Below, one piece after another: positions 28,315 to 49,275 of a stretch of DNA of 64,000 nt. Numbering within the stretch: position 1 is the stretch's first letter; every line of letters begins with the position of its first letter. This stretch comes from Tubiluchus corallicola. Lineage: Eukaryota; Animalia; Priapulida. The stretch spans positions 186,001 to 250,000 of the forward strand of contig JAQGDQ010000217.1 in NCBI GenBank assembly GCA_030141605.1. The letters run 5' to 3'. Under the pieces are notes generated by a model. It had not been told where the DNA came from, made no database searches, and saw only the letters and a list, made by a program, of their open reading frames with translations. The position numbers and the translations under genes were made by a program.

Positions 28315-31300
28315 ATGGAACAAGGAAAAATTTTGCCACTTTTAGATTCTAATCATGGAAGTGCCACTTCTAGTGAAGAGCAAGTTAAATTATTAGATGT
28401 TAGTAATAAAATCAGGCAACCAGAGATTGAACAAATTAAGCTTCTAGATGCTTTTGCATTGCCCACGGTAAATGGTGAAAAGGAATCTACTAAAGCTGAA
28501 ATACAAGATTCTGACATTCCTAGGCCTGTGGCTGTTAATTTTCTATCACGAAAAGTTACGAATGAATTGTCACAAGAAGAAGATAACAGTGGTAAAAAAA
28601 GTCGGTCTGTCAATGGCACAGCATCTAGTGACAAAGTGGTGGATAGGTGCAATCCTAAAGCAGTGGAAACTGATGATATTGTGCCGGTAACAGCAGATGC
28701 CAGTGACAATATTAATACATCTAGTGAAACCGAAAAGTTGACAGTAGATGATGACAGCGTGTCAGAGAAGTCTTTGGTAATTAACATGAGTGATGATGAG
28801 GAATCGCCTGATAATAAGGATGAGTCACTTAATAACAAGGAAGAAATTGATGCTGCAAATGAGAATAGAACGGAAGTTGTTGATACTGTAGATGGAAACG
28901 AGCAGGGAGATAAGGAAAACAGAATGGAATGTGCTAGTAGCTGTCTAGATGACGAAAATAAAAGTGAAAATGCAGCAGTTGTCGGTTCTCGGAGTACATG
29001 TGAAGATGGTGATAAAAAAGAAATGACACCAAATGTTGGCATTAATAAAGATAGCGCAAGCAGTTTTGCTACTGAAAAACAATCAAAACAGTTGCCCAGT
29101 GATTTCGCTGATAAATTAACAAAAGATATTTCAGACATTTTAAAAGGTGTTGGTAAACCCGGTAACAATAACGCTGCTGCCCAAGGTCTTTCTTTATCTG
29201 CAAAAGCGGACATTGAAGCTACGACTTGTGATCTTGAAATTAAAGAACAAGATGTGTGGTCAATTGGATCATTACCGTCTTTGAGTAAGATCAAGAAACC
29301 AAAAGGTATTATATACATATATATATTTTCAGTCTTATGTAGTATATTGTATACATGTATAGTAATATATGTGTATTATATCACTCTCAGTAAGGTCGAC
29401 CACAAAAAATTTCTATCTTACCTCATAAGCTCAAAAATGTCAGTAAGCAGGGAGAAATTTTTTTTAAAGCTTTATGAATGTTTAAAGCTAAAGCGTTTGT
29501 TTCCCACTGGCTAACAGTAATGTTTTAAATTTTTCAGTGCACTAATTTTATCGATTATCGCATTGTTTCTTTTTTATATTGTATGAGCATATGGTCTGAT
29601 AATTATGGTGTAAACGGCAACACTACTCTGCAGTTAATACGATAATTTGGCATAAAATATGATAATTTTTAACCTTCAATATGATAATCGGCATCATACA
29701 AAATGGCAACCTTTTTTAAGAGTTAGCTGTAGAAAAACATGGCTGCTCTTGCGGAAACAATGATGTTATAATAATTACTGCATTTTATATTTTAAATTAA
29801 AAAAGTATGCTCTGATATGACTGCACCAGGTAAGTATCCGAACATATGAAAAAAATATGTTAAAATTTCACATAAATTTGCAAATTTTGCTGATGCGTAT
29901 TTTCAGTTGTGGATAAATGAAAAAGAGATAACCTTGTGTCACTGCAGGCCCAATTATTAAAAGTTACGTTAAATTTAATTTTCATAAGAATAATTTGCAA
30001 ACTTGTACGTGGTGATTTATAAAGTGTCGGTGAATTGCATCCAAGATGTGTATCAGCATCTATTACCGTATACTTTCTCGCACTGAACTAATTGTAATTT
30101 AATATTTATTTGTTTCACCAACACATAAAATAATTACAATCAAGGTAACAAAGCTTACAGTACAATATCGTAGAATACAATAGCAAAATAGTTTTAACGT
30201 ATTATGTCAATAATGCCAGACAAACATTTAAGTTTTTAATAGAAAGATAGTAATGGACCTTTTCCCGTTAATTGTAATGATATGTGACGTCTTGCAGTGG
30301 CCTCAGAAAGCCGAAGCTTACAGAAAAGACCTGACAGTGAAACAGAAATTAGTTAGTACAAAAGAGGTGAAGGTGAAGTTGTCCCTAAGTAGTGACTGCG
30401 AAAAGAGGAGGACAGAAGGGGGAGAGGGAAAGATGATGCTATGTGATGTAACTAAGATTAAAATTAGCAGAGAAGTGCAGCATGAGACTTGCTGCAAAAA
30501 CAGAAGAAGATTAGCCTCACTTTGCATAATAGGAATAAGTGACAGGTATCACATGGATATTATTATACCGGTCTATTATTTCTTCCAGTATTTTTATGCT
30601 ATTCTCTTATTTATAGGAACTAAGGATATTCCTTTTAATACATCATTGAAAGCAAAACTACTTTTAGTTTCCTTAGCTAATTGTTGTATATCATTTCATG
30701 TTTTTGAGCCCTGGTATTTTATGAATATTAGTAATTTTTTCAATATTCATTCTACATAATGATATATAGAATTAATTGTACCTTGTGCTATAGCATAGAT
30801 TGTGACGGTTTTATTGGACTGTTACAAAAACTGTTATTATAACGAGCTTATACATATAAATAAGTAACTTAATTTTTACTATGTCATCCATGTTATAGCA
30901 CATTATGATTTCAATGATTAGTGTAGGCACTTGAATGTGTATAAACTGTCCCTGATGAGATCTTTATCATATAAATGTTTTGTAGCCAATCTGGATGTTC
31001 ATTTAAGATGACCTCTAAAAATGAACATCTAGATTGAGCAACTGGAGGCAAATATACTCTGCCGGACCCAATGCAAGTTTTTAGCTTTTTACAAAATTAG
31101 AGTCGGGTGAGGACAGGAAAATGCTTGCAATTACTCTACATGTTTATAATAGTAGAAAATAATGGTTTCACCTGTATTTTGCTTGTGAAATAACTAATAA
31201 TTCATATTCAGTGTTTCCTAGATTTCAATCATATGGCCTTTTCCAACATTGGTTCAAGTGGCAATGTCTTTCAAACTTTTGGCACTAGCAATTTCATTTT

Positions 31301-34300
31301 TTTGCTGTATGTTTCCAAAGCTTCAAGGCAATAGTATATGATTCATGTATTCTAGGGCAATGGCTGTTCTCATCTGTTATTTCTTTCCCACTACAAATGT
31401 TCACCGCACATGGTTTTTCGTTTACCACTCACTGATGGCCCACAAATGATCTGACTGGTCCCAAAAACTTCATCGAATATAATTCAACCTGCGTTTTCCA
31501 ATGATACTGCTAGCAAGGAGCAAGTTCATACTAGTGCAGATACCTATTGCTTAGTTTTTGTTAATAAGTTGTTACTTTGGTTCCAAAAGAGTGCTCTGTC
31601 AGGCACCTTCCAGGCCAGCCAGTTCTAGTACAGAAAACTTGGATACCACCTACTGGTTGAGGCACTGGGTTCATACATAGTACAATTGTAAAGCCCTTGC
31701 TGAAATCGCTTGACCATCATCATTTGTTTCAGTTTCATTTTTTCTAGCTCCTGTCTGACTTCTGAGTATCCCAAGTTCTCTCAGATCCTTAGTAATCTGT
31801 CCGGGTTATTGTTCACTGTTTAATAATTGAAGAGATGTAGCCACTTTTAGCTTTATTGGTTTTGCCCAAATTCTAAAATCCCGTCAAGCTGCATATGCAA
31901 TGCATTTTCTCGATGTTAACCATCATGGGCTATGATGCCTCAAAACCACAGATTTCAGTTGTAAACCCAAATCTTTCCCCATAAACACTTATTTACAGTA
32001 CTTTGTTCAGCAAAAAACATTAATCTGGCTCAGTTCAGCAAAATTATGTACTAATAATGTCTGGACTATTATTGTTGTATAGACTTTCTTACTTTCAAAA
32101 AGTTGCACACTAGTTGCACTATACCTTTCCCTTGGTTCTCTGACTTATTACATATCTATGCTAAACTAGGAGACAATTCAAAAATTATAAACTTTAATAC
32201 TATGAAGGTAGTCTTGCCATATCAGTCCAGTGCCCAGGTCACGTAGACTTGATTTTTGCCTTGATCTATAAACAATATCACTTAAAACCCAGAAATTTGT
32301 TCAGTCCTCACCGATTATATTGCAACAGATAAAGCAAGCACGCAGAATTTCGTAGCTTGACTTACTAACATTTTTGTGTGATGTTGTACAGGCCAACAAC
32401 AGTGGTGACGTTAACTAATATAAGTATTGCTATATTTCGCTAGGCCCTGCGAGACCCATAACTGTTACTTTATAAAATAGTTGAAGCACACACAACTCAA
32501 ATGTTTGTATAACCCTCTAACTGACATGCTTACAAACTCGAGATTTTAAATGATGATTGATGGTGATTTGTAACTACACTGTACCTATATCTAACTTCTC
32601 ATTCATAAAAAAGTTGTATGTGTTAGACTTGCCTCATTATAAATGTATGTGATATGATTGATATCCCTTTTTGATGTAGCTTTTGTAAACTCCATCATCT
32701 AGATAAAAATGATCAACACCTCTTATTTTGAGTATTTTTCAGCAAAGATAGTGGGTATAACAGACCTGTTTAAATGTATTTAAAAATATGCGTATCTTTT
32801 ATTTATTTTTTGGCAAAACTAGTCTAGACACTGTACTATGGGACTGCACATGTACTTAGAAAGTATTAACTATGCAACTCTTAGTTTCAAAATAACTGAA
32901 TGTACATGCATAATTATTGCAGCCAAGAAATCTTTTTCGCCATCTTCTCCTGCTTTAAATACCAGTGCTGATAGTCATGATGTCCAAGACTTTCCTAAAA
33001 CGAAGAAGCTTCGGACCGCAAGTCCAGTACCTGTAAGGCCAAGGCAGCAGGATGGATTTACCCCGGAACAAACTGCCTTACTCAAAGTACCCCTTGATCG
33101 GGGTGAGTATTATTACCTTGACTAAAAATTTTCTTTATGCTTTGATTAAGCAGCTCAGTTGTCCTTATCGTGGCCACTTTTGAGCAAATGAAAATAAGAA
33201 GGTATTTTGATATTCTAGAAAATCTCTCTAATATCAAAGTACCTCCTTATTTTGTTATTTAAAAAAATAATCAAGTCGAATTGTGAACTCTTAAAATATC
33301 ATGTTGTGCATTAATGCTCGAATAATCATTCAGTGCTTTCTTAACGTTTCAGTAAAAAACTTGTTGAATCTCCCTCAGTGCAGATATCGTGTTGCCCTGT
33401 AATACTGACCTGCATTGAAGATGAATAATCTCACCAAACTAAACTTTGCTGACATGATCATGAGCAATTTATGCACACTTTTCTGCGTGAAAGGACTGAC
33501 AGACAGAGAGAAACAAAACATACTTGATTTTGTCCTTTTGTCTTTTATTTATACATGTGTTAGCAAAACCTGGCGAGCTTCTGCCTCCTTCCTTCCCTCC
33601 CCTTGCATCTCTTTCTTCTCTCTTTCTCTCTCTCTATCTCTTTTTTCTCTTTCTCTCTCGCTCTCTCTCACTCATGTGTGTGTCTTTCTCTCTCACTTTC
33701 TGCCTTTTCTCTCTCTCACCTAAATGTATAGGCATTTTTTGGGATTTTCAGAAGACCTTCCACAGTGTATGGATGCCCTGCATGTTTTCAGTATGTGTAC
33801 AGAAATTGATGCAAATGATAATAAAGTTAAATATTAGTATGCCAGTAACAGTGTGTGTGAGGTTATTAGAAATTGTATTGAAGTGGTACTGTGACCGATT
33901 ACATTCCTGATGTTTGCTTTGAATATGAGTTATAAATTTTGCAGTGCAGACAAAACAGAACTGAGGTTATTGTTTTCAAAAGTGACCTCTAAGATGATGC
34001 TAGTTTACCTAATTTCCAGAGCTAATATTTTTTAATATCATATACTTCTTAAGCTTATAAAGGCCCACTTTTTTAGCTTAATTATAGGTAATAAAAATAA
34101 TAATATCATTTTGTTAGCATCGCATTTGAATTTTGCCTCTGGGCAGGTGAGATGTTTGCCTCTTCAAACATTCTCTACAGTTGCGACGTAGGAGCTGATG
34201 AGCCAGTTACTTACCTCCTACGTGTAAGTGCTGCTGCTTAGGTTTTACCTCCTAATTATGTTCTATAGTATTTATACTGTACTGTACGGGTTCTTTGTAG

Positions 34301-37300
34301 TGTGTTTAATTGCCCTTTCTAAGCCTTAAAACCTGCTGATCGAAGTTTACAGCTTGTGAAATGTTTATTTTCTAGTGTTTCCCATTCTAACCCATGCACA
34401 TTACATGAATTGTACATAATTATTATAGTTCATACATGATTTAGCTGGCCTATCAGTACAGTTTCATACAGTTTTTGAATCTGTATAAATCGGACAATAC
34501 CAGTAATTTGCAGACTGTTTTTTACGGGGATTCGGATTTTTGTGGACACCGAAGGAAAGTTTGAATTTTTGGATGTAAGCTTCAAAGCTAAAAGAGTCGA
34601 TATCATTACTGACCATTCAGTCAAGTTCTACCAATTCCGGCATAAATGGACGATCGAAGTCGCTAGGGAGCTTCGGGATCACACCTCGTTCCTTATCAAT
34701 TCCATCACAACAATATATGAACGCGCAGACTTTATCCTGTTGCAAGCGGCTCATAGCATGCGCTGTGATCAGCTTCGCAGGGCTATTTCCAATGTTCTTG
34801 TAATGATAGAGATCCTCCAAACATCCATGAGGAGCAGCAAAGACATCGGAGTACACTTGGTATTTGTGGACACAAAGACTGAAACCTGTAAACTTGTGAA
34901 CACGTTTTTTTACTTGTACACAAAAATCCACAAAGAAGGTGACCCCTGAAAAAAGATGTCCACAAATCCGTTTTGGCGTCCACAAAAATCAAGCACCCCG
35001 TTTTTACTCACGAGCAGTTTTACTGACACTTGTTTTTAAATCGAGAACAATCTTTGTGATCTTGATTCTGATTTTGCCAGCAAAAATAGTATTAGAATAT
35101 AGTTTTATAATAATAAAACTATAACACTATTGTCAAGATAAAAAATTCAAATTCTTAGATTATTAGATCACTGAATTATATTATTATTGTACATGGCAGA
35201 TAAAATAGTGTTAAACGCAGCTTCTTCAAACGCCACAACAATTTACAAGGAACCGACCGAAAAAAAGAAACTCGCCTAAAATAATTATAATTTCACGTAT
35301 CATGAAGCTCAGTGCTATACTTAGGTTACCCATTTAACGCACTTGTTTTCCAAATATTTGTCGCATACGCGGTAGTGCACGTGCGGTATATGGGATTGTG
35401 TGCTTAACCGCGCCAACCGGAATTTGGAAATGTTCTTGAAAGTGGCAACTCTGACGGTCGCCTTAGCAACGCTATCGAATGTGATAACTCGGTGGAAACC
35501 TTTTTGAAGTTGTGAAACCATCTAGTAAAATTTTTGTGATTGGTCAACGTTTTTCGTTTTCGCCAGTTATGATGCCCCTTTTATAATTATCAGACACTTG
35601 TTTTAAGACAACGGCCCAAGTTTCTGCTAGTGAATGTCTAGGCAAATTTCGCGGTTTTGTAAGGTTCGTGTGCGAACGTTTTGAGGTGAAATAATTGTGT
35701 TTTTTCTCTTATATATTTTTTGGAAGCTTGATAAACTTTAGCGTAAAACAAAATTAAAGGATACAGTAGTATTTCTAAAATTTCATAAATTCTTTGACAG
35801 CATTTTCTGTTTAACATACTATATTATAAGCTGCTATTTTTTCATAGATCTAAAGTTTCTATTAACTAACCATGTTTAAAAACAAAAAAGACTGTATATG
35901 GTCGAGCAAAGCGCTGTATTAGGCCTAGATTCATATTCATATCCAGTGTTTAAGGCTAGAGGTACATCCTTGGATCACTTATATTTTTTTATAGTTATAA
36001 TGCATGTTCTTCACTGGCATGATCTAGTGTGTGTATGGTACAAAGAATTTTTTGTGATTCCTCTCGCATTTCATATTTCTTTTGAATTAATTTATTGACT
36101 TAAATATTACAGTTTTGCTGCTTAAACCATTGCAGCTGTTGACTCCTCAGTTGCTGAAAGCGCAGTTTGCATACAGTTTGGCTCAGGGTCTGTAGAATTT
36201 ACTAGGATGACCTCTATTAGTAGCTGCATTCCTCAAAACGAAGGATTCCTCATCTAAAACGTTATTGATAATTAGCAAAACCTGAATCATGTCACTTCGT
36301 TGTCGTCTACGTTTTAAAGATGGAATATTTAATTTAGTTTTTTTATTTAATCCAAGTTGCTGAATGATGGAGCCAGCTTGGTAGCCGTTCGTTGAACCTC
36401 TTGTATAAGTTGAGCATCTCTTATAAATCTTGGTCCCCAAACAACATTAGCATATTTAGGTGTGGTCTAATGAGAGTTTTGATTATGTGAACAATCATTT
36501 CTTTTTATCATTTATCACTAAAACTTTTATCATTACTTTTCATGTTTTCATTCTCTAAAGTATGAACAAAAGTTACGAAAATTTGATTGTTAAAAAAGTT
36601 AAATTTCAAATAATTTGTATGTTTATAAAGTGCATTATGCAAATTGTTCCACATGATTTTCATTATTATCGCTGCCTGACACTGGGTCTCCATTATTATC
36701 TACTTCAGGATTCACCACTTCACCATTGTTATTCTCCTTTGCGACTTATTAATCTTATGAATCCGTGTTATAGTTGCTTAAAGCTGTCAGGTCATACATA
36801 ACGCAGTCACATCAAATTAGTCAAGATTATGTACCCGACACGTAAATGGGGTCACCAATATAAGTACGCAAATAAAGAGCTGTGAAAGCTTTTTCAGCCA
36901 ACCAAGAGGTCTATATTACACTCCTTGCCAAAGCAGTGGTGAAAATCTTTAACATATTTTCGTCCACCCCTGTCTCTTCTGATTGTTCAGTGCAAAACTT
37001 TAGGTTCTAGAAAAGTTGATATATGTGTAACATTAAATTATGTTTTGTCATTTCTATCTAATTCTATCTTTTTTGAAGTATATACTGTAAAACAAATTGA
37101 TGCTGCTAATCTGGACAATGTTGAGGAAAAGACAGTGGGCTTTCTTGTTACTGAGAACACTGTCAGCTGCCAAAGGCTTCATTTAGTTATCTTTAGTTAA
37201 AGGCCATTATTATGCTCTTGTCAGGGCTATGTAGAGTTAAAGTAGTAAATGTGCAATTGTTTTAGGTTGGAAGAGAATACTGTCTCATAGGTCTGGGGCA

Positions 37301-40300
37301 GCAGATCCAAAGATCAGAGCTGACGTATATTATTATACTCCACAAAATAAGCAGTTGGTATGTCAATTATGGTTTCGAGTTCTTGTCAGACCTGCAGATA
37401 TCTGATAATAGCAGCGAGTTCCAAAATGGAGCTCTATCTTATTATGACTTTTATAAGTATCGTTATTCTTTTTTTATTTAAGTTTTACGATTTAACTGTG
37501 TGCTTGTTAGGCTGGTCACGAGAATTTGTTTATCGAGCATATGCATCAGCTGAAAATGAAACAGTAGCCCAGGAGTTGAAGCTAAAGAAGGGTTTTGATG
37601 TTTATTATTACACCCCAGACAGAGTGAAATTGGTATAATTTTCAATTTTTTTCTAATTCTTTCTAATGTACTTATGTTTATGCTTTCTAAAATAGTTGCT
37701 TATCTAGCTAACATTGTCCTTTGCATTAAGCATTCTTTGTCTTAATAATTTCTTATGACATTTGTCATTACTAGTTTAATTGTAGAGCTTCTCGTTGGGT
37801 TGTATTATTTCTCCTCACTAAATTTGGAGGTTAACCTTTTTTAGAAGTACTCATTTTTTGCCAATTCTGTTAAAAACACTGATTCTGTTTACTAATAAAT
37901 TTTTGTTACTTTCGTCATGGAATTTTTTGATTGACTTTAACATTGTTTTAATCCAAAAGATTTGCACTGAAAAATAGAAAGTGAAATTTTCTCACTTGCC
38001 ATTACTAACTTGTATTAAGCACTGAACTACTGTTTCGTTTGCTTAACACAAATTCTGCCTATTATTTTTAAACGTGATAGTAATCAAGCCTTAAGGCAGG
38101 TATTGTAATTTCATTACAATACACCTTTTATTTAAGATTTGTAAGTCGCAGTTAAATCGTAAGCTTTATTTTGAAGTATTTTTTTAATTTTAAGCTTACT
38201 AATTTCCAAATATACGTACATGAATGTTCAACTTTCATAATAAAAGAAATTGCAAAAATGTGTTACACGTAAAAAATTTTACATGTAACACATTTTGCAA
38301 TACACACACGCACGTGCACGCACGCACACATGCATACACACACATTATATAATAATATAATACTGTTAGTAGCACCTCATAGTACGATTAATAACAAGTT
38401 TTAGGAATTTTTGCTTCTTTACCTTTTTTGACATTTTTTATTGTGTGTTTGCTCGGCTCTTCAGCTTATTATTCACTTTGGCAATTTTTTACAGTAATTT
38501 TTTTAACCAATTGCTACTACATGTAATTTAGTGATTTCATATAAATACTCTATAGTTGTCACTTGAACTGAAATGCACTTTGACACCAAACATTGAATTG
38601 TTTTTTTTATGTTTACTATTGTAATTGCCATTTTGATGCATTATTATGCTATGAATTACAAACAAGAGGAGTAGTCTGCATTTATTATAAATTTGTTAAA
38701 ACTATTAATATTTTGACTAATGAAATTTATTATATTTGCAGAGGTCCAATGTTCAAGTTGCACAGCATTGTAAGTAGTATATTTACTTTGCTTTTGCAAG
38801 TTCCAAAATTGTAATTCCATTAAAAAGACTTAAATGCACCTTATTAATAATTGTAAATGGAGTTCTATTCCAATGTCATTGTAATTACATATAAATTAAC
38901 TGTAGAGATCATTACACACTCCGCACATGAGAGGCTTCCATGCACAAACACGAGTTACTTAATTGTGTTTGTATTACCTTTTCCATCTTAATATTACTGT
39001 TTGTAATTTTTATAGTGCAAGAGGCTGGTATTACCAATCTAACTGGTGCAAATTTTTCGTATGGAAAATTTTTGATTGGGCATCCAAACGAGACTGAGCG
39101 ACATGCTAATCCTGCTAATAGAGGTGCACCATTAAAAGCACTTGTAAGTCATAATTTGATGTTTGCTTAGTTGCCTATGAAAGAAAATAATGAAGAGAAG
39201 ATTAGTTTCAAAATGATGATCAAATGGCAGTGCTGACGATTGTGGCAGCTTTGTTTTTTTCATGCTTTTGAAAAATAGTTTACCCACAGTTTTTATTTGC
39301 AGCATGCTAAAAACAACAGTACACCTTTGAAGAAATATAAGAAGAAGAAAAAGATGAGTTCTCCGCTGAAATCGCCTACTGCGGCTCAGCAGCAATTACC
39401 TGCAAAATCTGCGAATGATTCTCTTCCTGTCACAGACCACTCATACACTGCTTACACGCCAACTGTGTTTAAAGGTCCTCTTAAAATTAAATTAAAAACT
39501 CCAGGTAGTGCTTCGGCAGTCATTCAAAAATCAGTGCAGCGTAAACCTCCTGCACGAGCAGATGCTAGCATATACCAAAAAGCAACAAAGGCGTCATACA
39601 CCCCATTTACTTCTACAGCTAGTTCAACTCAGTCAAAAAATTTACATGATGCTTCACCGGAAACAATGCGTCCTTTGAAGTTCCAAAAGGCTGTTAAGTC
39701 TTTTCCTAAATCTAAAACAGACGTGACCCAGAAGGCTGTGAAATCCTTTTCGAAGTCTGGAATAGAGATAATACGCCCTAAGACGTTCCAAAATACGCAG
39801 AAAGCCGTAAAATCATTTTCTACTACCCCCGTACAGACCACCAGTTCTTCACATACTAGGTATGTTTGTTTTAACTGAATTTAATTACTCCTATTTTAAT
39901 TTCTTTGCATAACTGATGATTTATGCTATGAATAGATATTAAAGTTATTTTATGTCATCTATTTATGTGCAAATTAACACAGTCGGATTTTTGTCCATTT
40001 TTAAATTACTAATTTATCTACAATTTATTCTTAGTTGACCCTGTTTTGTTTCTGTTTATAATGCATGGCTTTCCTCTGATTGCTTAAACAGAATAAAACC
40101 AGTGGTCATACAATTGATTTGCAATAATGAGCAATGCAGTAAATCACTAGAATCACATATGCTTGCTGGCATCTTTTTGATTTTTATCTAAAACCGGGCG
40201 GTAATGGCACCCGCTAATATGCTTCACAAAAAATTCAGGAAAACTATAAGTGTTGCTGTCACAAAGCTCCACCAGAACCGAGCTTCGAAACGAATCCGAG

Positions 40301-43300
40301 TCGGAGCTTTGATTCGATCCGATTTGTTGAAGCTATTTTATTTCCTAATTGATTTGGTAGAGTTTCTTTTTTAATTTTGCTTAGCTTCGGCTGCAGAGGC
40401 AATTCAGTAGCATTTTGTTACAAAGAATTTTATACAATCTTTCACCCTTTATTTTTCGGAAGTTTTTTGTCCTACTTGAAATATGCCAATGTCACCACTT
40501 TCAGTTTCACCTTGTCTAACTCCTGAAGTCCAAGCACACACCACATTACGAGTTAAACTGCTAGTTTCAACAAAAATGATAAAATTCCTTGTATTACTTT
40601 AACTGAATGCTGCACATAATGTGTTTTACCGAACACGGTTTGATAACTACTCACAGTGTTATTGTAGAATTCTGTCAACCATGCTGCTCAGACTAGAGTA
40701 AAGCTGGACCAATCATTTTATTTATGATTATTCACAGTACATTTTGTCAGTTACTCTCAGTTACAGCAAAATGATCTGTTAGTCACTGGCATTTGTTGCA
40801 AAATAACTAGATCATAGTTTTTTTTATTGCAAATCATGCTGCTTAGATGGGCATCTGTAGAAAAAGCAAAACGTAAAATAATGTCTGCTACATTTCCCTG
40901 TTATAATCCAGGGGCTTCTAATAGTTACATGGTTTCTTGTGTATTTATAGTACAGTGACATGCTTTCTTGCATTTTTATACTACAATGATATTATAAATG
41001 TGTTAGATTCTGTGATTTTTACTACTGTGTTGTTTTTTGCGAATTTTATTTACTCTGTGATTATTTTCATTTGCTTGTATTTTTAGTGAATACCTAGGTA
41101 ACAAACTCCAAACAGAATTAGTATTTTGTGATTGTTGCAGTTTTTGTTTTTCACCTGTTCAAAGGTAATCCATGCTGTGATTGTGATTTGAAATGTCTTG
41201 TACCTTTTTATTTTCTTTACTGTGGCATTTTTTATTAATTGTGGGCCAACATATTCTTGTGTTTAGAAATTATCTCCATGTTAGGAAGACTGTATTTTTG
41301 TTTGTAATTTTTAGGTTAAACACCATAAAGGATGTGTCTTGTAGCATTTCATGTCTTGGACGCAATGGGGCTTTCCCCAGTTTACACTGTGGTATTTGCC
41401 TGGCTTTGTTTCACCCGGAATGTGTAGGCTTAACTGGTAAAGTGCAGCCTGTTTTTGTGTGCGCGGTAAGTGTCTCCAAATTATTGTTGTTACATAAAAA
41501 TAATGTTTGCAGAATCATAGAACTGTTACAGTCAGTTCGATAAGCATATACAAGTAATTATCAAATCCTTTAATTTTTGGTGTCCTAAGTAATTTACCTA
41601 TATAGTTTAAACACATTTAAACACAGTTTTTTCACTTTCAGAAATGTTTACGCGATCATAGTCATGTGGGTGGTAATGTTTCAATGGCAAATAAGTGGAA
41701 TGTTCAGTCAGCCTCCAAACCAGTTTCCACTTCGCCTGTTACGCCGCTTACAAGTGGCCATTTTGCAACAACAGTTGCGGCTCCTGTCTCCCCACTCACC
41801 AACCTTCCGCCTCCTCCACCATTGAAAGTGGGTGCTGCTTTTTCCTTACAGACTGTTAGAACTTCTGGTTCTGTTCATCCAATGAGACCACCAGTTTTGC
41901 AGTCAAGAAACTCTATACCTTCAGCTGTTACATTACAACATGTAAGGCCTCCAGCTCTCACCCAAGCGACAAAACCGCCAATGCTGACATCAGTTACGTC
42001 TCTTGGTTCACCAGTGGTTGCTGAAGCATTACCACAACTGACACCTCGGCCAACTCTTTCCACAATTTCACCAGCTACTTCTCCAAAAGTTGTTTCTGTT
42101 GCGACTTTGAATCAGGTATGATTTTCAGTTCATTATTTTAATTTGCTTCACATAGTTTTTTCTGATTAATTCAAAATCAAATCAAAGGCATAAATATTAA
42201 GTTAAATTTGTATAAATTAAATAAATTTTGTAATTTGTGTTAAGAAAGTGATGTTCTTATATTTTTCAGACTCCAAGGTTTTCTCAGTCGCAGCCAAATT
42301 TTGTCTTGCAGCCTAACCAGAACTATGTGGTTCAAAATGGTAGGGTTATAACGGGAGCAGGAAACATGCCTGGCACTATGTTTTTTTCTAATCCAAATCC
42401 TGTTCGCCCTGCTGTACCGGCGGTAGCATTTTCTCTCCCTTATACACTGGCAACGCCCTCTTTAACTCAAACGGTGCCTGCAACCAATGTCACTTCTAGA
42501 ATACAGACACATATGACGCAACCACAGAGTAGTGCTGTACCATCAATGACTGTCTCTATAAAAGTACCAAGTAATGGACCTGCCACTTCAAAAGCTCTGT
42601 CATCTGTTGCTCAGCAACAAGTGCCTAATTCTAGTGTTAGGCAGAAAGAGAAATTCAGAGCGAAGCGTTTAGGTGTTAACCCAGCTGCATGCCATATACA
42701 GAAGCTACACGCAGGTTACGATGTGCTCCTGCATGTGTTCTATCATTTGAACTATGCTGATCTGTTACGAGCTAGCTGTGTTTGCCGAATATGGCACAAT
42801 GTAATAAAGGATGCTTCTGTGGTAAGATGATTTACGGTTGTTGCAGTTTTGTTCGATTCTAGAGTTAAGGAAACTTACAAAGTAAATTTTAATGTGTTAA
42901 AGTCTCGATTTTTGCTGTACAGCTTAATTGTTGGAATTTTTTTCAAATTAGTTAAGAATGGTACAGTGTACAGCTTAGGATCTCGGTTGTGCATGATTTG
43001 CAAAAACTACGTCTCATATCCAAAAATACAGTTTCGGTCAGTTTAAGACCATTTAAGATCAAAAGTTAGCCTCGGAAAATTTAAAGCCCCCTAATGTCAA
43101 AGTTGCATGGCTGGAGTTATAGAACTTAATCGTCAGAAAAATTGTGCTTTTGCAAAATTTCCCAATTGGAATTACTGCTTCTTTGCACAGTACTTTTTCC
43201 ATTTCAGTGGAGAACAATTCGTTTAAAAGATTCCAGTTTTCGTAGTTGGGGTGGATTACTTAGACGAATGAAGAAGTACAATACAGTTCATTTGGTATGA

Positions 43301-46300
43301 AAGTCGTATATCGTTTATTTGTCATATACATTTGAGTTGCATGCTGTGGTTGTTGCTAGTGCTGATATTATCTTTTAGCTGTAAAAATTCGACAGGTAAA
43401 AAGTTACTAGTTTATTTTCATTTTTAGGATTTCCAAGATGTGAGAATATTGACGAACCCACCTAGCATGCTCTGGCAAGCTGTGCCAGAAATTATAGAAT
43501 CTGCTCTTAGTTTGAAACGCATTAACTTTGGAAAGGTATGTTGCATTCTATAAAGTAAGAGTGTCAAAACTGAGTATCTTTTGTGCTGATGATGTGACCA
43601 TATATTTATAAAATAGGATAGTTGGAATAGAAATCTTTTTCACTATGCTAGCTTGATAGCTTCTAAGTAGGATTTTGCCTTCACTCTGCATTTTCTCATT
43701 TATCAGTTTTACATGGTGGTAGTATGCTTTCGCCTATATTGTAATATATGAGTGTTCTTTCTTGCTTATAATGCAAATTCTAAATGCGGTTGTGGTTTAT
43801 TCATAAATTTAAGTCGCAATTTCAGTTTTTTTAAAGTGGTTTTCATAGTGCCCAATTGTTCTGAATAAATACCAGACTTAGTCGAATTAGTGAATACGGA
43901 ATGGCAACACTTTAATTTGTATTATATCATAGTTGTAAACCAGTGGTTCCAAAACTCATTATCTCGTGACTCAACTTCACTGTGCGAGATGAAACTGCAA
44001 TCCCTTCTGAGTGCACTAACTACACTGATCAAACTAAACATCAAAATGCGTTCATCAAGCTTGATTATCTTTTGTTAACTGTATTTGTTTGCAAAGTTTA
44101 TTTATTACATTAGGGCTTACGTTTAGGAATTAATTTTACAGTTCGTTAATGTGACGAATGGGCTTGCTTATTGCCCGAGACCAGCATAATCGAGTTCAGT
44201 GTTGAACAAAGAGATAATTACAATATGTTTACTTTCCAGTTTCAGTCGCTTTCTCTTAGTTTTCACTGTGCCATCATGGAAAATCCTCTCAACATAGATA
44301 GATAATTTGATGGCTAAGTACTTTCAGCATTTTGATTGCTCTTTTTGACAAATGACTGCAAAACTGCGATCAAATATTTTTTTTCTGACTGGCCAGAAAC
44401 TCCACAAACTATTCACACAACACAGTTTATACAAAGTTAATACTAAACTGAACGAGCAGATTTACACTCGACACATTGTAGATATACAGAATTGCAAACC
44501 TAAGCCTAAGCCTAATAAGTATGAATTTTCTTACTTGGGAGAGCCCTTTGGCTTATTAACTGTAGGACTGTGTTTGATTCGTTTGCACCTTGCCAAGAAG
44601 CATTCGCGAAATGCCAAAGCCGGAAAATGCTACTTCTTGGTTATTTCGGAAAGGCTCACAACTCATTGAAAAGTGCCTTGTAACTTTAGGTTTGCCAACC
44701 ACCATTGTGAATGAGTTACTTGTTAAACATTGATTACGAGTTCGAATACTTGCATTTTTTTATTTTTTTTAATTTGGTAGTTGTGAAAAGTTGAAAGAAT
44801 TGCACAGTTCAAAATGTTATTCATTTTGCAGGTTCCATCGTCAGTTTTGTTGAAATTTGTTTACTCGCCCAGCATATGTAAACAGTTGAAAGAATTGACT
44901 GCAGATGCAATCATAGAAAACCCAGATTCGACAGCAGCTTGGTATGAGCATGTACATTAAGAACGTGTAGTTGTGTGTATTTACGGGAAACTAGCTGAGT
45001 TGAACATACTTTGCTATATAATTTTCATTTAGAACAGCTGGTGCTTTATATCTTACGATTTATAAGATGACTGGTAAAGGTAGAAGGGAGAATGAAAGGG
45101 AGGAGAGTGAGATTGAGGGGTGAGAGAGGCAGTGAGGGTAGGAATGGTGCAAGCAGCAACTTGTGAGTGAATTGCAAGAGGGAAAGATAGACTGCAAGAC
45201 AAAGAGTAATTGTTTACCTGAATAAAATCGTCCAATTGTCCCAATGGTTTTTTTAGGTGTAATGTGATAAAGTTTGATATTGGAAAGTTTAGCAATATGC
45301 AAAACCTGCAGGAGTTGAAAATTCGAGCCCTAACAGGAATGCAGTCCCCTTCTTTCCAATTCAGTGGTGGGATGGAGGTGCTGCCATCTTTAAAGCATCT
45401 ACGAAAATTGGTATGGTGTTACTATGCTGTTCCGCTAATTATGCTTTTGCAAAAAGTGTCAGTGTTTGTGTATTGTCAGTCAAGAATCTTCCATACTTTT
45501 GCTTTATAGATTAGCCACATTTCAAATTTTCATGACAAAATACTAGGGTTTTATTGTAAATTTTTATCTGTTATGTGGCTTGTGACATTATAGGGCTACA
45601 CTTGTGTTATAAAGAAATTAAGGTCATTCTAGTTATTGTTTTTCTGTTGAAATAGATTTTTTGTTTTAATTTTATCCCATTTCAGAATTAAAATAAATTT
45701 GCATTATATTTGTTAATTTATTTATCTGTTTCTCATATTTTATTTTTTTGGAGAGGATGTTTAGTCCATAACTGCAATGTAAATTATATTGTCTTGCTGT
45801 TATCTGCAAATCTATCATGATAGATTTACTACTAACAACCATTTTTTCTGTTCCAGTCACTTACGAATTTAAGAGATATTCGTGAGCAAGAGTTCAGTTT
45901 TCTAGGCGAAATGTTAGAGTTGGAATCACTAGAGCTGGGTGACTGCCGAACATGGAGCTCAGAAGTATGTGAGCTCTTGAACTTTTATCTGATCTGCAGC
46001 TTCTTAAGGCAGTGTTTTTCAACCAGTGTGCCGCGGCACGCTGATGTGCCGTGAAAGATCATCAGGTGTGCCGTGGGAAATTATCTAATATCACCTAATT
46101 AACCATTGTCGGGGGTCTGTGCTGTAATAAACTGTGGCCGATAATGTAAAACTCTTTTATTTCAGTGGGTGGCAGCAGAGAGCGATAAATGCCTGTAAAG
46201 TCAATAGAGTTAGTGTTTATGTACAGCATCATTACTTGAAATATACTTGACTCTCAAAACACTGCGGGATTGAATGATAAACAAGAGAATTATCGCTGTT

Positions 46301-49275
46301 GTATGTTTGCTTAGTAAATTCGTATACAGTTTACTTTGAGCACATAACTGGTTTAGATATACCATAGTTTAGGTTTGCTATATATACAAATGTAAATGTG
46401 TTGCGGGCAATCAACCACAGACAGCTTCATTAATATAGTAAGTTTTCATGCTTCTTTAGAACTATCAATCGACTTGATCAGGCGTAATTGTAGGGCCAAA
46501 GAATTATACAATTTGGAGGCAGGAGACGTGAACGATTATGTGACTAGCCTGCTACGTGAGACTTCAAGATTTCACCACTTTCTGTGCTGACGCATAAGTC
46601 AGAATGGTCACGTGACCGCCTATTGTTTCAACACGCACGTGTCTGTAAATGGTGGTGGTGCCCGAGGATTTTGGAAATGTAAAAAATGTGCCGTGGCTCA
46701 AAAAAGGTTGAAAATCACTGTCTTAACGGGTTGTCCACATACAAGATTTTGGGTCGTTTATAGAGTATTGTAAAAAATTGACAGATGTCTTACAGTGACC
46801 TCATTAGGCAAACGTATCGTTTCCTTTTCTTTTTGAGTAATTCAATAAAGTTCTTGCTGTTGAGCATTCACCATTTTTATTTTATTGTTGTGATGCAGTT
46901 GGCTAAACTCTAGTGTTTTTTGGCTAATTGTTGAATATTCTTACATTTGTACATACTTTAACTAACATGGTTTCTGTACTGTGGCAAGAAAGTTATTTTT
47001 TTAATCAAATTTAGCATTTTTTTGAGGATTAAAATAACGCGGACAGTCTGATAATTTAAAACTATGCGATCTAATTGTAGAAATTGAATCTTATTTTTGT
47101 ATTGAACAAATATTTGTGTTCAAAGTTCAATTTGTTTGTAATTATTTTTCCGATAAATTTGAATTCACAGCAACATTGCGTAACATACACTTTATTTACA
47201 AGCACATGTTATTTCTTTTTGCCCTAGCAGTCAAGCAGTTATCGAAATCATTCTGTAATGACTACAATGTTTAAATTGGATTGTATCTAAACAGCTAGTT
47301 TATTTTATGATTATTGCAAAATTCTGCCTGCTCACTGGTTGCTAGACGTGATCATGTTTCTGTGAACCATCCACCGCATAAGGTTCACCACCAGTTGATT
47401 TTTATAGTGCATAATCAATTTTTTATCACATATTTATTGGGTGATATATCATCTATTATTTATTGTTAGCCACAATCATTTATTGTTTTTTACCAGTAAA
47501 GAGTGAAATGTATAACTGTGAACATTAAAAGTTAAGAGTGGGAAAACATACTTGTGAAACAGCATGTTTAAATTCCTCTTTGGTGGGTGTTACTTTTGTA
47601 GGCTTATAGCAGTTTCTGTGTAAATTTTCATTTGGATTTAACTAGAATTTTTAAGCTTTGCCCGACACTATTTAAATCTCATTTCATAACATTTTAAATG
47701 TTTTGTGTTGTTCCGTTATAGTGTGCATTTGTAAATACATATGCATTCTGAAAAAAATACTTTACACTGATATTTAAGAAATAATTCACTTACTTTTGCA
47801 GACTTATTATGAACTAGGTAAGCTGGTGAAACTCAGGCATCTCCACTTGGAGGCAGGAGGAGAGATTCCTGACGTAGGACTTGCAGATGCCATACACAAC
47901 ATGCATGAGTATGTATCAGAGTCGTCTGATAATCCTCTAAAACACTTACTGTCAGGAGATAAAGGAAAATTATAATATGTAGCATTTTAAGGCAGCTTTT
48001 GGATGTTGAATGTTTGTTTACATGCAAACAGTATCAGGTTAGCAAGCTAACTGAATATTGTGTTCAAGCTTTCATATGTAACTAAACCTTGTACACACCA
48101 ATTTGTAATGAATACAGTGAAATTCGTGTATTGATATTTCAAACAGCTGTTCTATGCACATAACGCACCGAGAACTAAACAAAACAGTACGTCCTCTCAG
48201 TGAGTCTAACTATATATGTTTTGGGAAAATTTCAATTAGACACTAACACTGATTGATATGACAAGAGGCTGTAGGCAAATTTCTTTCGTAAAAATTTTGC
48301 ACTTTTACGCTTGCAGTCAAGTAGGGTAAGGCGCAAATGAGTTGTGCGCTTGATAGAGACACAGTTTTCAGCAATTATCAGTCGAGAGACAAAAACATTA
48401 ATATCGTGCGCAGTTTTATTTTACTAGCGGGATTTTTGAACAGATTAACATAGCAAATAGTATTTTAGTGCTTCATATTAGGCAAAAATGTTGATGTTAA
48501 AGTAAAAACTGCTTTGAGCAAGTCAAAAAAGTCGTATTTAAAATGAAAAAAGTTGGCAAATGTTCAGCCTCGTTGAATTGAAATGTCTCTAAATGGAGTG
48601 TCGTTAAGTGATGACACAGCGCTTTTATTATTTTTTCTATAAATTAAGAGTTGATGTCTTTTCATTCCAGATTAGCGACCCTTGAGCTCATTATGTTTAC
48701 AGTACCAGACACGTTGATATCTGTGCTCCCTCAACTTCCAAATTTGCGTAATCTCAGCATATGGCCCGATGTTGAACAGGTAAGTAATCGCTCAGCGTGT
48801 TCTACTAGATGTAAAATTTAATTATTCTCTTGCCTGATATACATATCTATGTACTGGTAGTTGTTAAAAAAGTTATTGAAAATTGTTTCTCTGCATATTT
48901 TGTGTTGTAGATATGCATTTTTCATGGCATTCAAAAATATTTCATTGATGCTTATTTATAATGTTCATCTATATTTTTCAGGCTGATGTCATTAATACAA
49001 ACGTCTTCTGTCTTGTTATGTGTTTGCCAAAACTGAAACGTTTTGACTGGGGCGTGGCTTGTGAAACCGACAAACTGGGGCAGCAGACAATTACTGCGAT
49101 ACCTTTTCTTCCCTTAAATGAATGGTCTGTTCCAAACATTCCGGGTTTGGCACTTGGCCGGGATGCAACCACGATGTCCGTTACCCAGCTCATGGAAAAT
49201 CTTTGCCCGGTTTTACCGAAGACAAAGATTCGTGTATTGCGAGTTCCAATCGTGAAGTCACCAAAGACGAAATAA
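28315..49275 (+). CDS. MBD-PHD-F-box-LRR protein (~1409/1419 aa; acidic N-terminus, methyl-CpG-binding domain, PHD finger, P/S/T-rich linker, F-box, LRRs)
   Basis: Exons 28315-29305, 32923-33102, [37266-37357 OR 37511-37632], 38742-38769, 39016-39143, 39303-39859, 41315-41465, 41642-42115, 42270-42821, 43208-43294, 43428-43535, 44832-44941, 45257-45410, 45857-45964, 47802-47908, 48671-48779, 48982-49275. All introns are GT-AG and phase-consistent (4230 nt with exon A). MBD: PLDRGWKR...DVYYYTP..KQLRS..QVAQHL..NLTGANFSY. PHD: CSISC..CGIC..FHPEC..CAKC. F-box: DVLLHVFYHLNYADLLRASCVCRIWHNVIKDASVWRTI. LRRs: LQELKI, LRKLSL, LESLEL, LRHLHL, LRNLSI. Confidence 0.88.
33585..33720. repeat. Imperfect (CT)n pyrimidine microsatellite
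   Basis: Direct reading. Confidence 0.9.
34524..35001. mobile_element. Unclassified TIR element (478 bp) with ACGGGG ends
   Basis: Left end ACGGGGATTCGGATTTTTGTGGACACC; reverse complement of right end ACGGGGTGCTTGATTTTTGTGGACGCC. Internal TGTGGACAC/GTCCACA repeats; T-run flanks on both sides. Confidence 0.65.
35340..35700 (+). promoter_or_regulatory. Candidate intronic promoter: E-box, ETS-like site, RFX X-box, CCAAT box
   Basis: CpG-rich patch with CACGTG (~35378), CCGGAA (~35417), GTCGCCTTAGCAAC (35457-35470) and ATTGG (~35539). Confidence 0.5.
36180..36470 (-). mobile_element. CR1-type LINE 3' fragment
   Basis: Peptide LNIPSLKRRRQRSDMIQV...NRGHPSKF resembles the CR1 ORF2 C-terminal motif L..LSL..RR.RGDLI.V...TRGH.KL. 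Confidence 0.75.
37266..37357 (+). CDS. MBD core exon A (mutually exclusive)
   Basis: TTTAG|GT...TTG|GTATG, phase 1 in and phase 0 out; encodes GWKRILSHRSGAADPKIRADVYYYTPQNKQL. Confidence 0.85.
37511..37632 (+). CDS. MBD core exon B (mutually exclusive)
   Basis: GTTAG|GC...TTG|GTATA, phase 1 in and phase 0 out; encodes GWSREFVYRAYASAENETVAQELKLKKGFDVYYYTPDRVKL. Confidence 0.85.
38249..38343. repeat. ~25-bp-stem inverted repeat followed by an alternating purine-pyrimidine (CA/CG) tract
   Basis: Arms ATTGCAAAAATGTGTTACACGTAAAA and TTTTACATGTAACACATTTTGCAAT, then TACACACACGCACGTGCACGCACGCACACATGCATACACACAC. Confidence 0.85.
43941..44704. mobile_element. Degenerate hAT-like non-autonomous element
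   Basis: Left end CAGTGGTTCCAAAAC, right end GGTTTGCCAACCACCA, imperfect 8-bp TSD (TTGTAAAC/TTGTGAAT). Confidence 0.45.
46010..46720. mobile_element. hAT (Charlie-like) non-autonomous transposon, 711 bp
   Basis: TIRs CAGTGTTTTTCAACC and GGTTGAAAATCACTG; 8-bp TSD TCTTAAGG/TCTTAACG; subterminal GTGCCGTG repeats. Confidence 0.9.

Follow-up and report, generated by a model that had tools for sequence, protein, structure and literature searches.

A 17-exon MBD-Fbox orthologue in the priapulid Tubiluchus corallicola, likely a DNA-tethered receptor of an SCF ubiquitin ligase

How invertebrates read gene-body methylation, and to what effect, is still an open question, and in the portion of the survey literature available to us the toolkit surveys consider MBD1/2/3 and MBD4 only (PMC11292947). 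A locus in the priapulid Tubiluchus corallicola may bear on it. In a window of 64,000 nucleotides (assembly GCA_030141605.1, contig JAQGDQ010000217.1, positions 186,001 to 250,000; all positions below count from the first letter of this window), a first-pass annotation had placed an MBD, a C4HC3 PHD finger, an F-box and LRRs in one gene. We ask whether this is indeed one gene, to which family it belongs, and what its product might do.

In the spliced model of the window, positions 28315-49275 of the forward strand, on which all features described here lie, form one gene of 17 coding exons, running from an ATG at 28315 to a TAA that ends at 49275 (exact coordinates), with introns that are all GT-AG and reach about 4.2 kb. 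The resulting ORF is uninterrupted, with 1,419 amino acids when exon M2 is used and 1,409 when exon M1 is used, and its product carries an MBD, followed by a C4HC3 PHD-type finger, an F-box and then about 12 LRRs. Coding exon 1 (28315..29305) carries the ATG and an acidic, Ser/Asp/Glu-rich, weakly conserved N-terminal region, and has a phase 1 donor. Exon 2 (32923..33102) supplies a basic linker along with the lead-in on the N-terminal side of the MBD, corresponding to the Priapulus segment that precedes GW, and it ends after the opening base of the GW motif's Gly codon. An ORF at 30232-30756 was considered as an extra exon and dropped: it has no Pfam match, it is uncovered by homologues, and exons 1 and 2 are in phase without it.

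The first half of the MBD would come from either of two exons, M1 (37266..37357, 92 nt, with a short loop; Pfam MBD E 6e-4) or M2 (37511..37632, 122 nt; Pfam MBD E 1.2e-3, tblastn E 5e-7). A 28-nt micro-exon (38742..38769), read from the sequence and included because the frame requires it, encodes the Arg-Ser of the MBD, with the second arginine finger, and the start of the helix, and the last MBD exon (39016..39143; tblastn E 9e-5) encodes the helix and the Asn-Phe-Ser-Tyr hairpin region. The Lys/Ser/Thr-rich linker exon (39303..39859) contains a run of Lys and the motif KAVKSF three times; a contig of sequencing run X2, described below, lies on 39421-39535. Ligands 1-7 of the finger are encoded at 41315..41465 (tblastn E 2e-12; Pfam PHD E 0.055 only) and its last Cys at 41642..42115, in an exon that continues as a Pro/Ser/Val/Thr-rich linker. 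The F-box exon (42270..42821) joins more linker to the F-box (Pfam F-box 2e-8, F-box-like 1.8e-8; tblastn E 5e-22). The LRR solenoid begins in the following exon (43208..43294) and continues through exons at 43428..43535, 44832..44941, 45257..45410 (tblastn E 4e-6), 45857..45964 (tblastn E 7e-10), 47802..47908 and 48671..48779, all placed by tblastn and the spliced model, to the last coding exon (48982..49275), which holds the C-terminal LRR cap and the TAA and matches the Priapulus homologue P0001 with 50% identity (E 5.5e-15).

That the four kinds of domain belong to one gene, as the first-pass annotation held, is borne out by this single ORF and by colinear orthologues. In a Pfam scan of 15 single-exon ORFs, the F-box in ORF 42252-42830 scored above the cut-off (E 2e-8, 34.3 bits; F-box-like 34.4 bits), LRR_14 matched weakly, and the two halves of the MBD fell just below the 21-bit cut-off (E 6e-4 at 19.8 bits and E 1.2e-3 at 18.8 bits) since three exons share the domain. 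Those three exons are colinear with P0001 (Priapulus XP_014663232), a protein retrieved with the last exon as query, whose own Pfam matches are MBD (2.5e-11, 43.5 bits), F-box-like (7e-14) and LRR_14 (2e-9). By tblastn the window is colinear with it from the MBD through the stop, and blastp of the spliced model gave it as the best match (E 3e-136), with homologue P0002 at E 2e-91. The gene is colinear as well with gene models made independently for other animals and with their transcript contigs, which lack introns; P0003, which clusters with the scallop Argopecten, is an intronless ORF of 1,353 amino acids on a 4,471-nt contig, and in oyster a cluster with 291 members has intronless ORFs of 1,205-1,207 amino acids on contigs of about 4-5.5 kb. 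Judged by sequence, then, the domain assignment is secured by the orthologues.

Transcript evidence comes from run X2, which is labelled as the same species, is 90-95% alike to the window and gives short spliced contigs. They confirm three predicted junctions: 45410>45857, where a contig's loose end at 45410 continues with the letters of the next exon; 47908>48671, in a spliced contig that skips 762 letters with GT..AG; and 48779>48982, as a loose end. The run provides four short contigs, none of them over the MBD, finger or F-box exons, and a look-up of 39279-49275 found no RNA-recorded run for the window's own sequence. Another run, X1, behaves as DNA. The stretch from MBD to finger having no RNA coverage in the window, and the introns being long, one might suppose that an MBD gene and an adjacent F-box-LRR gene had been merged by annotation. 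Such an artefact would have to be squared with a phase that stays consistent across 16 introns, with the same domain order in gene models made independently for the named species that we examined, with whole ORFs on intronless contigs, and with Pfam MBD and F-box matches that are both above cut-off in 30 of the 31 representatives scanned. We consider it already close to refuted and give it next to no weight.

The gene is, by its sequence, an orthologue within a protostome family of a kind already known. The first-pass annotation cautioned that genes with MBD and F-box had been noted in invertebrate surveys, and rightly so: the portion available to us of de Mendoza, Pflueger and Lister (Genome Res 2019, PMC6673714) names an MBD-Fbox family, with Strigamia Smar_011572 as an example. 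The window gene has an MBD (Pfam PF01429) and, C-terminal to it in the same polypeptide, an F-box, joined by one ORF, and the labelled Strigamia row in the portion of Table S3 available shows the same MBD signature when compared by eye. The named relatives that we looked up are all protostome, from a priapulid, a brachiopod, a nemertean, an annelid, molluscs, chelicerates, a crab and a sawfly. Searched for exhaustively, the family yielded 72 cluster representatives with E<=1e-30 and 211 with E<=1e-10; family HMMs found MBD and F-box together in 88 of 154 proteins, 61 of which have the finger too, and in the Atlas five clusters of at least 50 members have both domains. A word search gave 13 matches, four of them with MBD and F-box, and a word search with the F-box exon as query gave no match. 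The annotation also knew of no functional characterisation, and we likewise found no functional study of MBD-Fbox in the literature. What is new here is the conservation of the finger ligands and of the MBD contact residues, and the tandem MBD exons.

These tandem exons, M1 and M2, each specify the domain's first half in the same phase between AG and GT sites, and the frame is intact only when exactly one of them is used, since both or neither would break it. The arrangement suggests that they are mutually exclusive, with M1 a predicted alternative. It is M2 that corresponds to Priapulus, with 21 of 41 residues identical, and its loop is 10 residues longer than that of M1. M1 retains the Arg, Asp-Val-Tyr-Tyr and Pro positions and departs from the consensus in having no Arg-Glu after GW; both exons keep the methyl-CpG contact residues. 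The idea that M1 is the counterpart of a short-loop mollusc form found no support, as its scores against six homologue segments are alike (46-57). Annotated isoforms elsewhere differ at the same place: in Lingula (X1/X3 versus X2) and in Mya (X1 versus X2), the sole difference is the segment from GW to just before Arg-Ser. Lingula X2 pairs with Mya X1 ("Asp-Thr-Tyr-Tyr") and Lingula X1 with Mya X2 ("Asp-Val-Tyr-Tyr"), a correspondence that hints at an old origin of the exon duplication.

The finger, read across the junction 41465/41642, has the pattern C-x3-C-x11-C-x2-C-x4-H-x2-C-x12-C-x2-C, in which the first ligand pair is spaced x3 rather than the usual x2. Its eight C4HC3 ligands are kept in 79, 80, 80, 80, 80, 80, 78 and 75 of 80 sequences. 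Matches to Pfam PHD are weak in the exon ORFs (E 0.032-0.074; PHD_4 at E 0.074, below threshold) and stay below threshold in every orthologue scanned, the best being E 0.001, in one of 31 representatives. A profile of the finger matched 43 PDB chains, 37 PHD and 6 RING (best E 0.0075), with no KDM2 or FBXL19 chain among the 43. An AF2 model of the 68-residue finger from four sequences has pLDDT 64.4 and a secondary structure unlike PHD, and in a model of the full-length Lottia orthologue (P0004) the finger has pLDDT below 35; both are unusable for the finger.

Taken together, we think it somewhat more probable than its denial that this 17-exon MBD-Fbox orthologue is a DNA-tethered substrate receptor of an SCF ubiquitin ligase, probably one that reads methyl-CpG. 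That function is inferred. The MBD would keep the protein on chromatin, jointly with the finger, which may bind a histone tail; the F-box would recruit SKP1-CUL1, and the LRR solenoid would offer a chromatin-bound substrate for ubiquitylation. The choice between M1 and M2 would alter the DNA-contacting loop of the MBD, and therefore the site or the tightness of ligase placement would change. A fuller version, in which protostomes have a ubiquitin ligase dedicated to methylated DNA, with gene-body 5mC read, SCF brought to chromatin and an ancient exon pair giving two readers of different DNA preferences, is one that we put forward only tentatively, as less probable than not.

The reading of methyl-CpG is one point at which this proposal may be disputed. 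In MBD2 and MeCP2 two arginine fingers, an Asp and a Tyr contact the mCpG. When the MBD is aligned to MBD2 (6c1a), all four residues are retained, and in the family HMM alignment they are kept in 93 (Arg), 87 (Asp), 91 (Tyr) and 94 (second Arg) of 97 MBDs. Almost no CpG methylation is known from Tribolium. In the portion of Table S3 of PMC6673714 available to us, a Tribolium row of the same signature adjoins the labelled MBD-Fbox row, and this would suit a different view, that the domain is a methylation-blind binder of DNA backbone or RNA, of the BAZ2/TAM type, and the protein a general chromatin- or RNA-tethered SCF receptor. The closest solved MBD by sequence is indeed that of BAZ2B (7win, E 2.3e-7, versus 4e-6 for MBD2), the tree in the same portion of that paper puts MBD-Fbox beside BAZ2 and SETDB and not within the clades known for methyl-CpG binding, and BAZ2 TAM domains bind DNA and RNA regardless of methylation (PMC10783490). 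In mollusc members, Gly-Arg-Pro AT-hook-like motifs follow the MBD, as in BAZ2; the motif was not found in the window protein. The Asp and the Tyr that the family keeps are lost in BAZ2, however. Partial text of PMC6673714 calls this Tyr responsible for methylcytosine recognition, and in the rows of its Table S3 available it is absent from BAZ2 and present in MBD-Fbox and neighbouring rows. The idea of methyl-DNA reading is helped by the conserved Arg/Asp/Tyr/Arg set and weakened by the closeness to BAZ2-type domains; we hold the methylation-blind view to be unlikely, if worth keeping in sight.

The receptor role may be questioned as well, as the F-box-LRR part might serve mainly as an SKP1-dependent scaffold that brings a partner complex to DNA without substrate degradation. 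KDM2B recruits PRC1.1, and FBXL19 its partners, in such a role. The order of DNA reader, PHD-type finger, F-box and LRRs is that of KDM2/FBXL19, whose clusters rank next in a whole-protein feature search (0.84-0.86, to be taken as a lead only), and KDM2B (5jh5) is the only F-box chain that aligned through the LRRs (about 215 positions, E 6.4e-6). When searched alone, however, the F-box-LRR part is nearest to generic F-box/LRR clusters, such as FBXL18, FBXL2 and SKP2-like, and not to KDM2/FBXL19. The F-box lacks the usual Leu-Pro start, having Gly-Tyr-Asp instead, and Pfam matches begin at model position 7; its core of Phe, Leu, Val-Cys..Trp and Leu-Trp is retained across 136 sequences, and its profile matches the SKP2 F-box at 1.2e-7. 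The AF2 model of Lottia P0004 (6 sequences, mean pLDDT 46) is usable over three parts, with pLDDT 74-88 for the MBD, 56-72 for a beta segment of molluscs and about 40-90, mostly 60-90, for the F-box-LRR, and in Foldseek it folds like FBXL2-SKP1, TIR1-ASK1 and SKP2 (E 1e-8 to 1e-7, target-normalised TM 0.38-0.53), with KDM2B absent among the best 50 matches. A mainly scaffolding role strikes us as improbable, and we retain the SCF substrate receptor as the preferred reading.

MBD-Fbox proteins unite an MBD that retains the methyl-CpG contact residues with an F-box receptor, in a family that is widespread among protostomes and has had one mention in print. If the proposed mechanism is true, it would provide a direct link from 5mC to ubiquitylation, with the MBD exon switch as a natural handle on specificity; if the MBD proves blind to methylation, the family remains a chromatin-tethered SCF receptor that has yet to be studied.

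Among known systems, the nearest is the MBD-Fbox family itself, with which the gene shares the signature GW-x-Arg-Glu ... Asp-Val/Ile-Tyr-Tyr ... Lys-Leu-Arg-Ser ... Phe-Ser/Thr-Phe/Tyr joined to an F-box, and the protostome distribution; nothing contradicts membership. The passages available of PMC6673714 on the family make no mention of the finger, the LRRs, alternative MBD exons or function. With BAZ2A/BAZ2B (TAM/MBD, AT-hooks, DDT, PHD, bromodomain) the family has in common the lead-in before GW, the Asn-Phe-Ser-Phe region and the order in which an MBD, AT-hook-like motifs (these in molluscs) and, further on, a PHD-type finger occur, whereas the Asp and Tyr are replaced in BAZ2, and MBD-Fbox has a C-terminal F-box-LRR and no DDT or bromodomain. 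To MBD2/3 and MeCP2 the likeness lies in the aligned arginine fingers, Asp and Tyr, and for MBD2 in an M1 loop of about equal length; unlike them, the window protein lacks a coiled coil and NuRD-binding parts, and in exon M2 and most family members the loop between the first strands is longer. SKP2, FBXL2 and TIR1 likewise have an LRR solenoid after the F-box, but they are without DNA-reading domains, and the Leu-Pro with which an F-box usually starts is replaced in the window protein.

The likeness to KDM2A, KDM2B and FBXL19 (CXXC-PHD-F-box-LRR) is one of domain order only: a DNA-reading module, a PHD-type finger, an F-box and LRRs. The suggestion of an FBXL19/KDM2-like gene in which an MBD takes the place of CXXC found no support as stated. 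Pfam found no CXXC in any exon ORF or in the 35 scanned orthologues, and no JmjC in the scanned exon ORFs or orthologues; KDM2 does not appear to be the particular nearest relative of the F-box-LRR; and in place of a PHD_4-type finger packed beside its DNA reader, the window protein has an unfused finger about 210 residues from the MBD. As a working analogy, that of a chromatin-tethered SKP1 binder, KDM2/FBXL19 is nonetheless plausible.

The MBD-Fbox gene is a single gene with all of its domains in place, a member of a family, and a bearer of the contact and ligand residues conserved there. Our model, built by hand from stop-to-stop frames, splice-site scans, the DNA itself and homologues, has 17 coding exons on the + strand, from an ATG at 28315 to a TAA ending at 49275, with every intron GT..AG and an open frame of 1,419 or 1,409 codons. 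Both ends match the first-pass annotation exactly, and its proposal that one reading frame joins an MBD, a C4HC3 finger, an F-box and LRRs was borne out, as the frame of the 17-exon model stays open and the orthologues are colinear with it. When 15 single-exon ORFs were scanned with Pfam, the F-box was clear (E 2e-8), the PHD (E 0.032-0.074) and LRR matches were weak, and two half-MBD matches (19.8 and 18.8 bits) fell just below the 21-bit cut-off. These low MBD scores arise because the domain is divided among three exons, one of them a micro-exon of just 28 nt (38742-38769). No RNA run is on record for the window's own sequence; spliced joints in four short contigs from run X2, which are 90-95% alike to the window, bear the same species label and cover no MBD, finger or F-box exon, confirm junctions 45410>45857, 47908>48671 and 48779>48982.

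The last exon matches Priapulus caudatus XP_014663232 (E 5.5e-15, 50% identity), which has Pfam matches to MBD (2.5e-11), F-box-like (7e-14) and LRR_14 (2e-9), is colinear with the window from the MBD through the stop by tblastn, and aligns to the spliced model with E 3e-136. Of 13 word-search matches, nine are generic LRR proteins; the remaining four, from Priapulus, Gigantopelta, Lottia and a Logan contig, combine an MBD with an F-box. The Logan ORF (P0003, 1,353 aa) fills its contig of 4,471 nt and falls in a cluster with a scallop protein; an oyster orthologue cluster holds 291 members, mostly ORFs of 1,205-1,207 aa on contigs of ~4-5.5 kb. Since the gene, split by 16 introns in the window, occurs elsewhere as one unbroken ORF on contigs barely longer than the ORF, these contigs are best read as assembled mRNA, and therefore the MBD and the F-box-LRR part would lie on one transcript in relatives.

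The window is AT-rich (G+C ~33%) and intron-rich, resembling an invertebrate animal genome. It opens with an exon that matches the C-terminal end of the autophagy protein ATG2 (456-761, +; Pfam ATG2_CAD, E 3e-18), followed by an SOS-like exchange-factor gene (about 4648-19269, -) with a RasGEF exon at 8295-8579 (E 1.5e-17), a weak RhoGEF exon at 18976-19269 and a Pro-rich last exon at 4648-5379. Between the latter gene and the MBD-Fbox gene lies a reverse-transcriptase fragment (24242-25010, -; RVT_1, E 0.003), probably a decayed non-LTR element, and an ARMT1-like damage-control phosphatase gene (52205-54086, -; Pfam E 5e-65) is convergent with the MBD-Fbox gene. In run X1, which behaves as DNA, depth is raised over intronic stretches at 29290-29956, 34626-35292 and 45965-46631 (88, 63 and 299, against ~5-25 elsewhere), which are probably repeats; contigs break at two simple repeats, 33608-33701 and 38300-38345.

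By sequence, the nearest solved domain to the MBD is that of BAZ2B (E 2.3e-7), followed by MBD2 (4e-6). In MeCP2 and MBD2, two arginines, an aspartate and a tyrosine have roles at methylated CpG. All four are in place when the MBD is aligned to MBD2, and the PDB matches include MBD2 variants differing at exactly those two arginines. Among 97 family MBDs, counting both window isoforms, the Arg, Asp, Tyr and Arg are kept in 93, 87, 91 and 94. BAZ2 TAM domains are described in PMC10783490 as binding DNA and RNA with no methyl preference, and the rows seen of Table S3 in PMC6673714 give Glu-Val-(Ala/Thr/Trp)-Tyr for BAZ2 against Asp-(Val/Ile)-Tyr-Tyr for MBD-Fbox; the text of that paper also states the role of the tyrosine. 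Because the four residues are kept despite the closeness to BAZ2B, methyl-CpG binding by this MBD is plausible. Gly-Arg-Pro AT-hook-like motifs, as in BAZ2 and MeCP2, follow the MBD in the molluscan orthologues P0002, P0003 and P0004; neither Priapulus nor the window protein shows any.

The first half of the MBD is encoded twice. Exon 2 ends one base into the GW-motif Gly codon, at donor 33102 (phase 1), and two candidate successors on the + strand, M1 (37266-37357, 92 nt) and M2 (37511-37632, 122 nt), each begin AG|G-, encode GW ... Arg ... Asp-Val-Tyr-Tyr-Tyr-Thr-Pro ... Leu and stop right ahead of the Arg-Ser micro-exon. The frame is open with either exon alone; with both or neither it breaks within ~50 codons. 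M2, whose loop is 10 residues longer, is the Priapulus-like form (21/41 identical), M1 being more divergent. NCBI isoforms of Lingula anatina (X1/X3 versus X2; P0018/P0166) and of Mya arenaria (X1 versus X2; P0026/P0186) differ solely in the segment that starts at GW and stops just short of Arg-Ser. Because the frame allows exactly one exon and these isoforms swap the same segment, we read M1 and M2 as predicted mutually exclusive exons, the choice between which would change the MBD strands and loop that face DNA. By score, the Lingula and Mya variants, of 'Asp-Thr-Tyr-Tyr' and 'Asp-Val-Tyr-Tyr' types, match up between the two species (92 and 81 versus 71 and 71), a hint that the exon duplication is old. 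Of the Tachypleus isoforms X1 and X2 (P0188 versus P0190), one lacks the 10 residues that end with the GW Gly, a loss that would remove the MBD start.

The finger, C-x3-C-x11-C-x2-C-x4-H-x2-C-x12-C-x2-C, spans exons 41315-41465 and 41642 onward; of 80 sequences, 79, 80, 80, 80, 80, 80, 78 and 75 conserve its eight ligands in turn. Curated PHD models all scored below threshold on the window exon ORFs and orthologues, and two structure models gave no usable prediction for it. A profile made from four sequences matched 43 PDB chains at E<=10, comprising 37 PHD fingers (best KDM5B, 0.0075) and six Arkadia-type RINGs, with no KDM2 or FBXL19 chain among them. Many H3K4me3-reading PHDs have Trp two residues before the finger His; the window protein has Leu. 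Ahead of the finger, the motif (Gln)-Lys-Ala-Val-Lys-Ser-Phe occurs three times (39303-39859; model residues 612, 627 and 650), with a related Lys-Lys-Ser-Phe ahead of the MBD (32923-32940); the motif is present at the two sites in Priapulus also, and molluscs carry Ala-Arg-Lys-Ser-Thr-Thr-Pro.

The core of the F-box, conserved across 136 sequences, can be aligned to SKP2 (1.2e-7); the usual Leu-Pro start is replaced. The structure predicted for the Lottia orthologue has helices and then ~13 strand-helix repeats, and Foldseek matched this model to FBXL2-SKP1, TIR1-ASK1 and SKP2, as well as to generic LRR proteins such as internalins. Molluscs also have a conserved beta-rich segment between finger and F-box (P0004 residues ~585-650, also P0002 and P0003; pLDDT 56-72), which has no Pfam match and to which nothing in the window protein clearly corresponds.

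In an exhaustive HMMER search, the part of the Priapulus protein beyond its acidic N-terminus matched 1,184 cluster representatives at E<=1e-3; of these, 211 reached <=1e-10 and 72 reached <=1e-30. MBD and F-box were both above the Pfam threshold in 30 of the 31 representatives scanned, the exception being a second Priapulus gene, P0017 (LOC106806958). This has finger, F-box and LRRs and no MBD by Pfam or family HMM, and represents a paralogue whose MBD was lost or else a cut gene model. With HMMs from the first four orthologues, 88 of 154 proteins had MBD and F-box, 61 of these also the finger; the remainder were mostly short or N-terminally cut. Named members, all protostomes (24 clusters looked up, two without one), come from a priapulid, brachiopod, nemertean, annelid, bivalves, gastropods, octopuses, horseshoe crabs, spider, scorpion, tick, crab and sawfly, and five Atlas clusters of at least 50 members, most commonly Arthropoda, have both domains. 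Automatic annotation has given misleading names to some members: P0022/P0169 (Octopus), P0043 (Athalia rosae) and P0193 (Argiope) are listed as 'serine-rich adhesin for platelets', 'titin homolog' and 'THAP domain-containing protein 3'.

The first-pass annotation had cautioned that MBD and F-box genes appeared in invertebrate surveys, and rightly so, as an MBD-Fbox family was named in 2019 by de Mendoza, Pflueger and Lister (PMC6673714, the one relevant paper that text searches for MBD with F-box brought up), who report it in Strigamia and Parasteatoda and its absence from Stegodyphus. In the part of their Table S3 seen, Smar_011572_MBD_Fbox has the MBD signature of the window gene's family, and adjoining unlabelled Tribolium, Daphnia and Capitella rows with that signature would group there too. 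The passages of text examined and that part of Table S3 hold no statement on function, finger, LRRs or splicing. The window gene adds a new member to a family that has been named but is still unstudied. What we contribute is the conservation of the finger and of the mCpG residues, the wide range among protostomes and the exon switch.

We suggest that the protein would be tethered to DNA, probably at methylated CpG, that its F-box would bind SKP1-CUL1, and that it would present a chromatin substrate; the choice of MBD exon would tune the tether. The initial description of an FBXL19/KDM2-like protein with an MBD replacing CXXC holds for domain order; against kinship, no CXXC was found in the window exon ORFs or in the 35 orthologues scanned, and the MBD lies far from the finger. 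KDM2/FBXL19 clusters come next best in a whole-protein feature search (0.84-0.86, a lead only) and KDM2B aligns to the family through the LRRs, but the finger is not KDM2-like in the PDB profile search, the F-box-LRR part alone is nearest to generic families, and KDM2B is absent from the best 50 structural matches. The N-terminal half may equally have come from a gene of BAZ2 type (MBD, molluscan AT-hooks, a later finger). We treat the relation to KDM2 and FBXL19 as one of functional analogy and make no claim of kinship.
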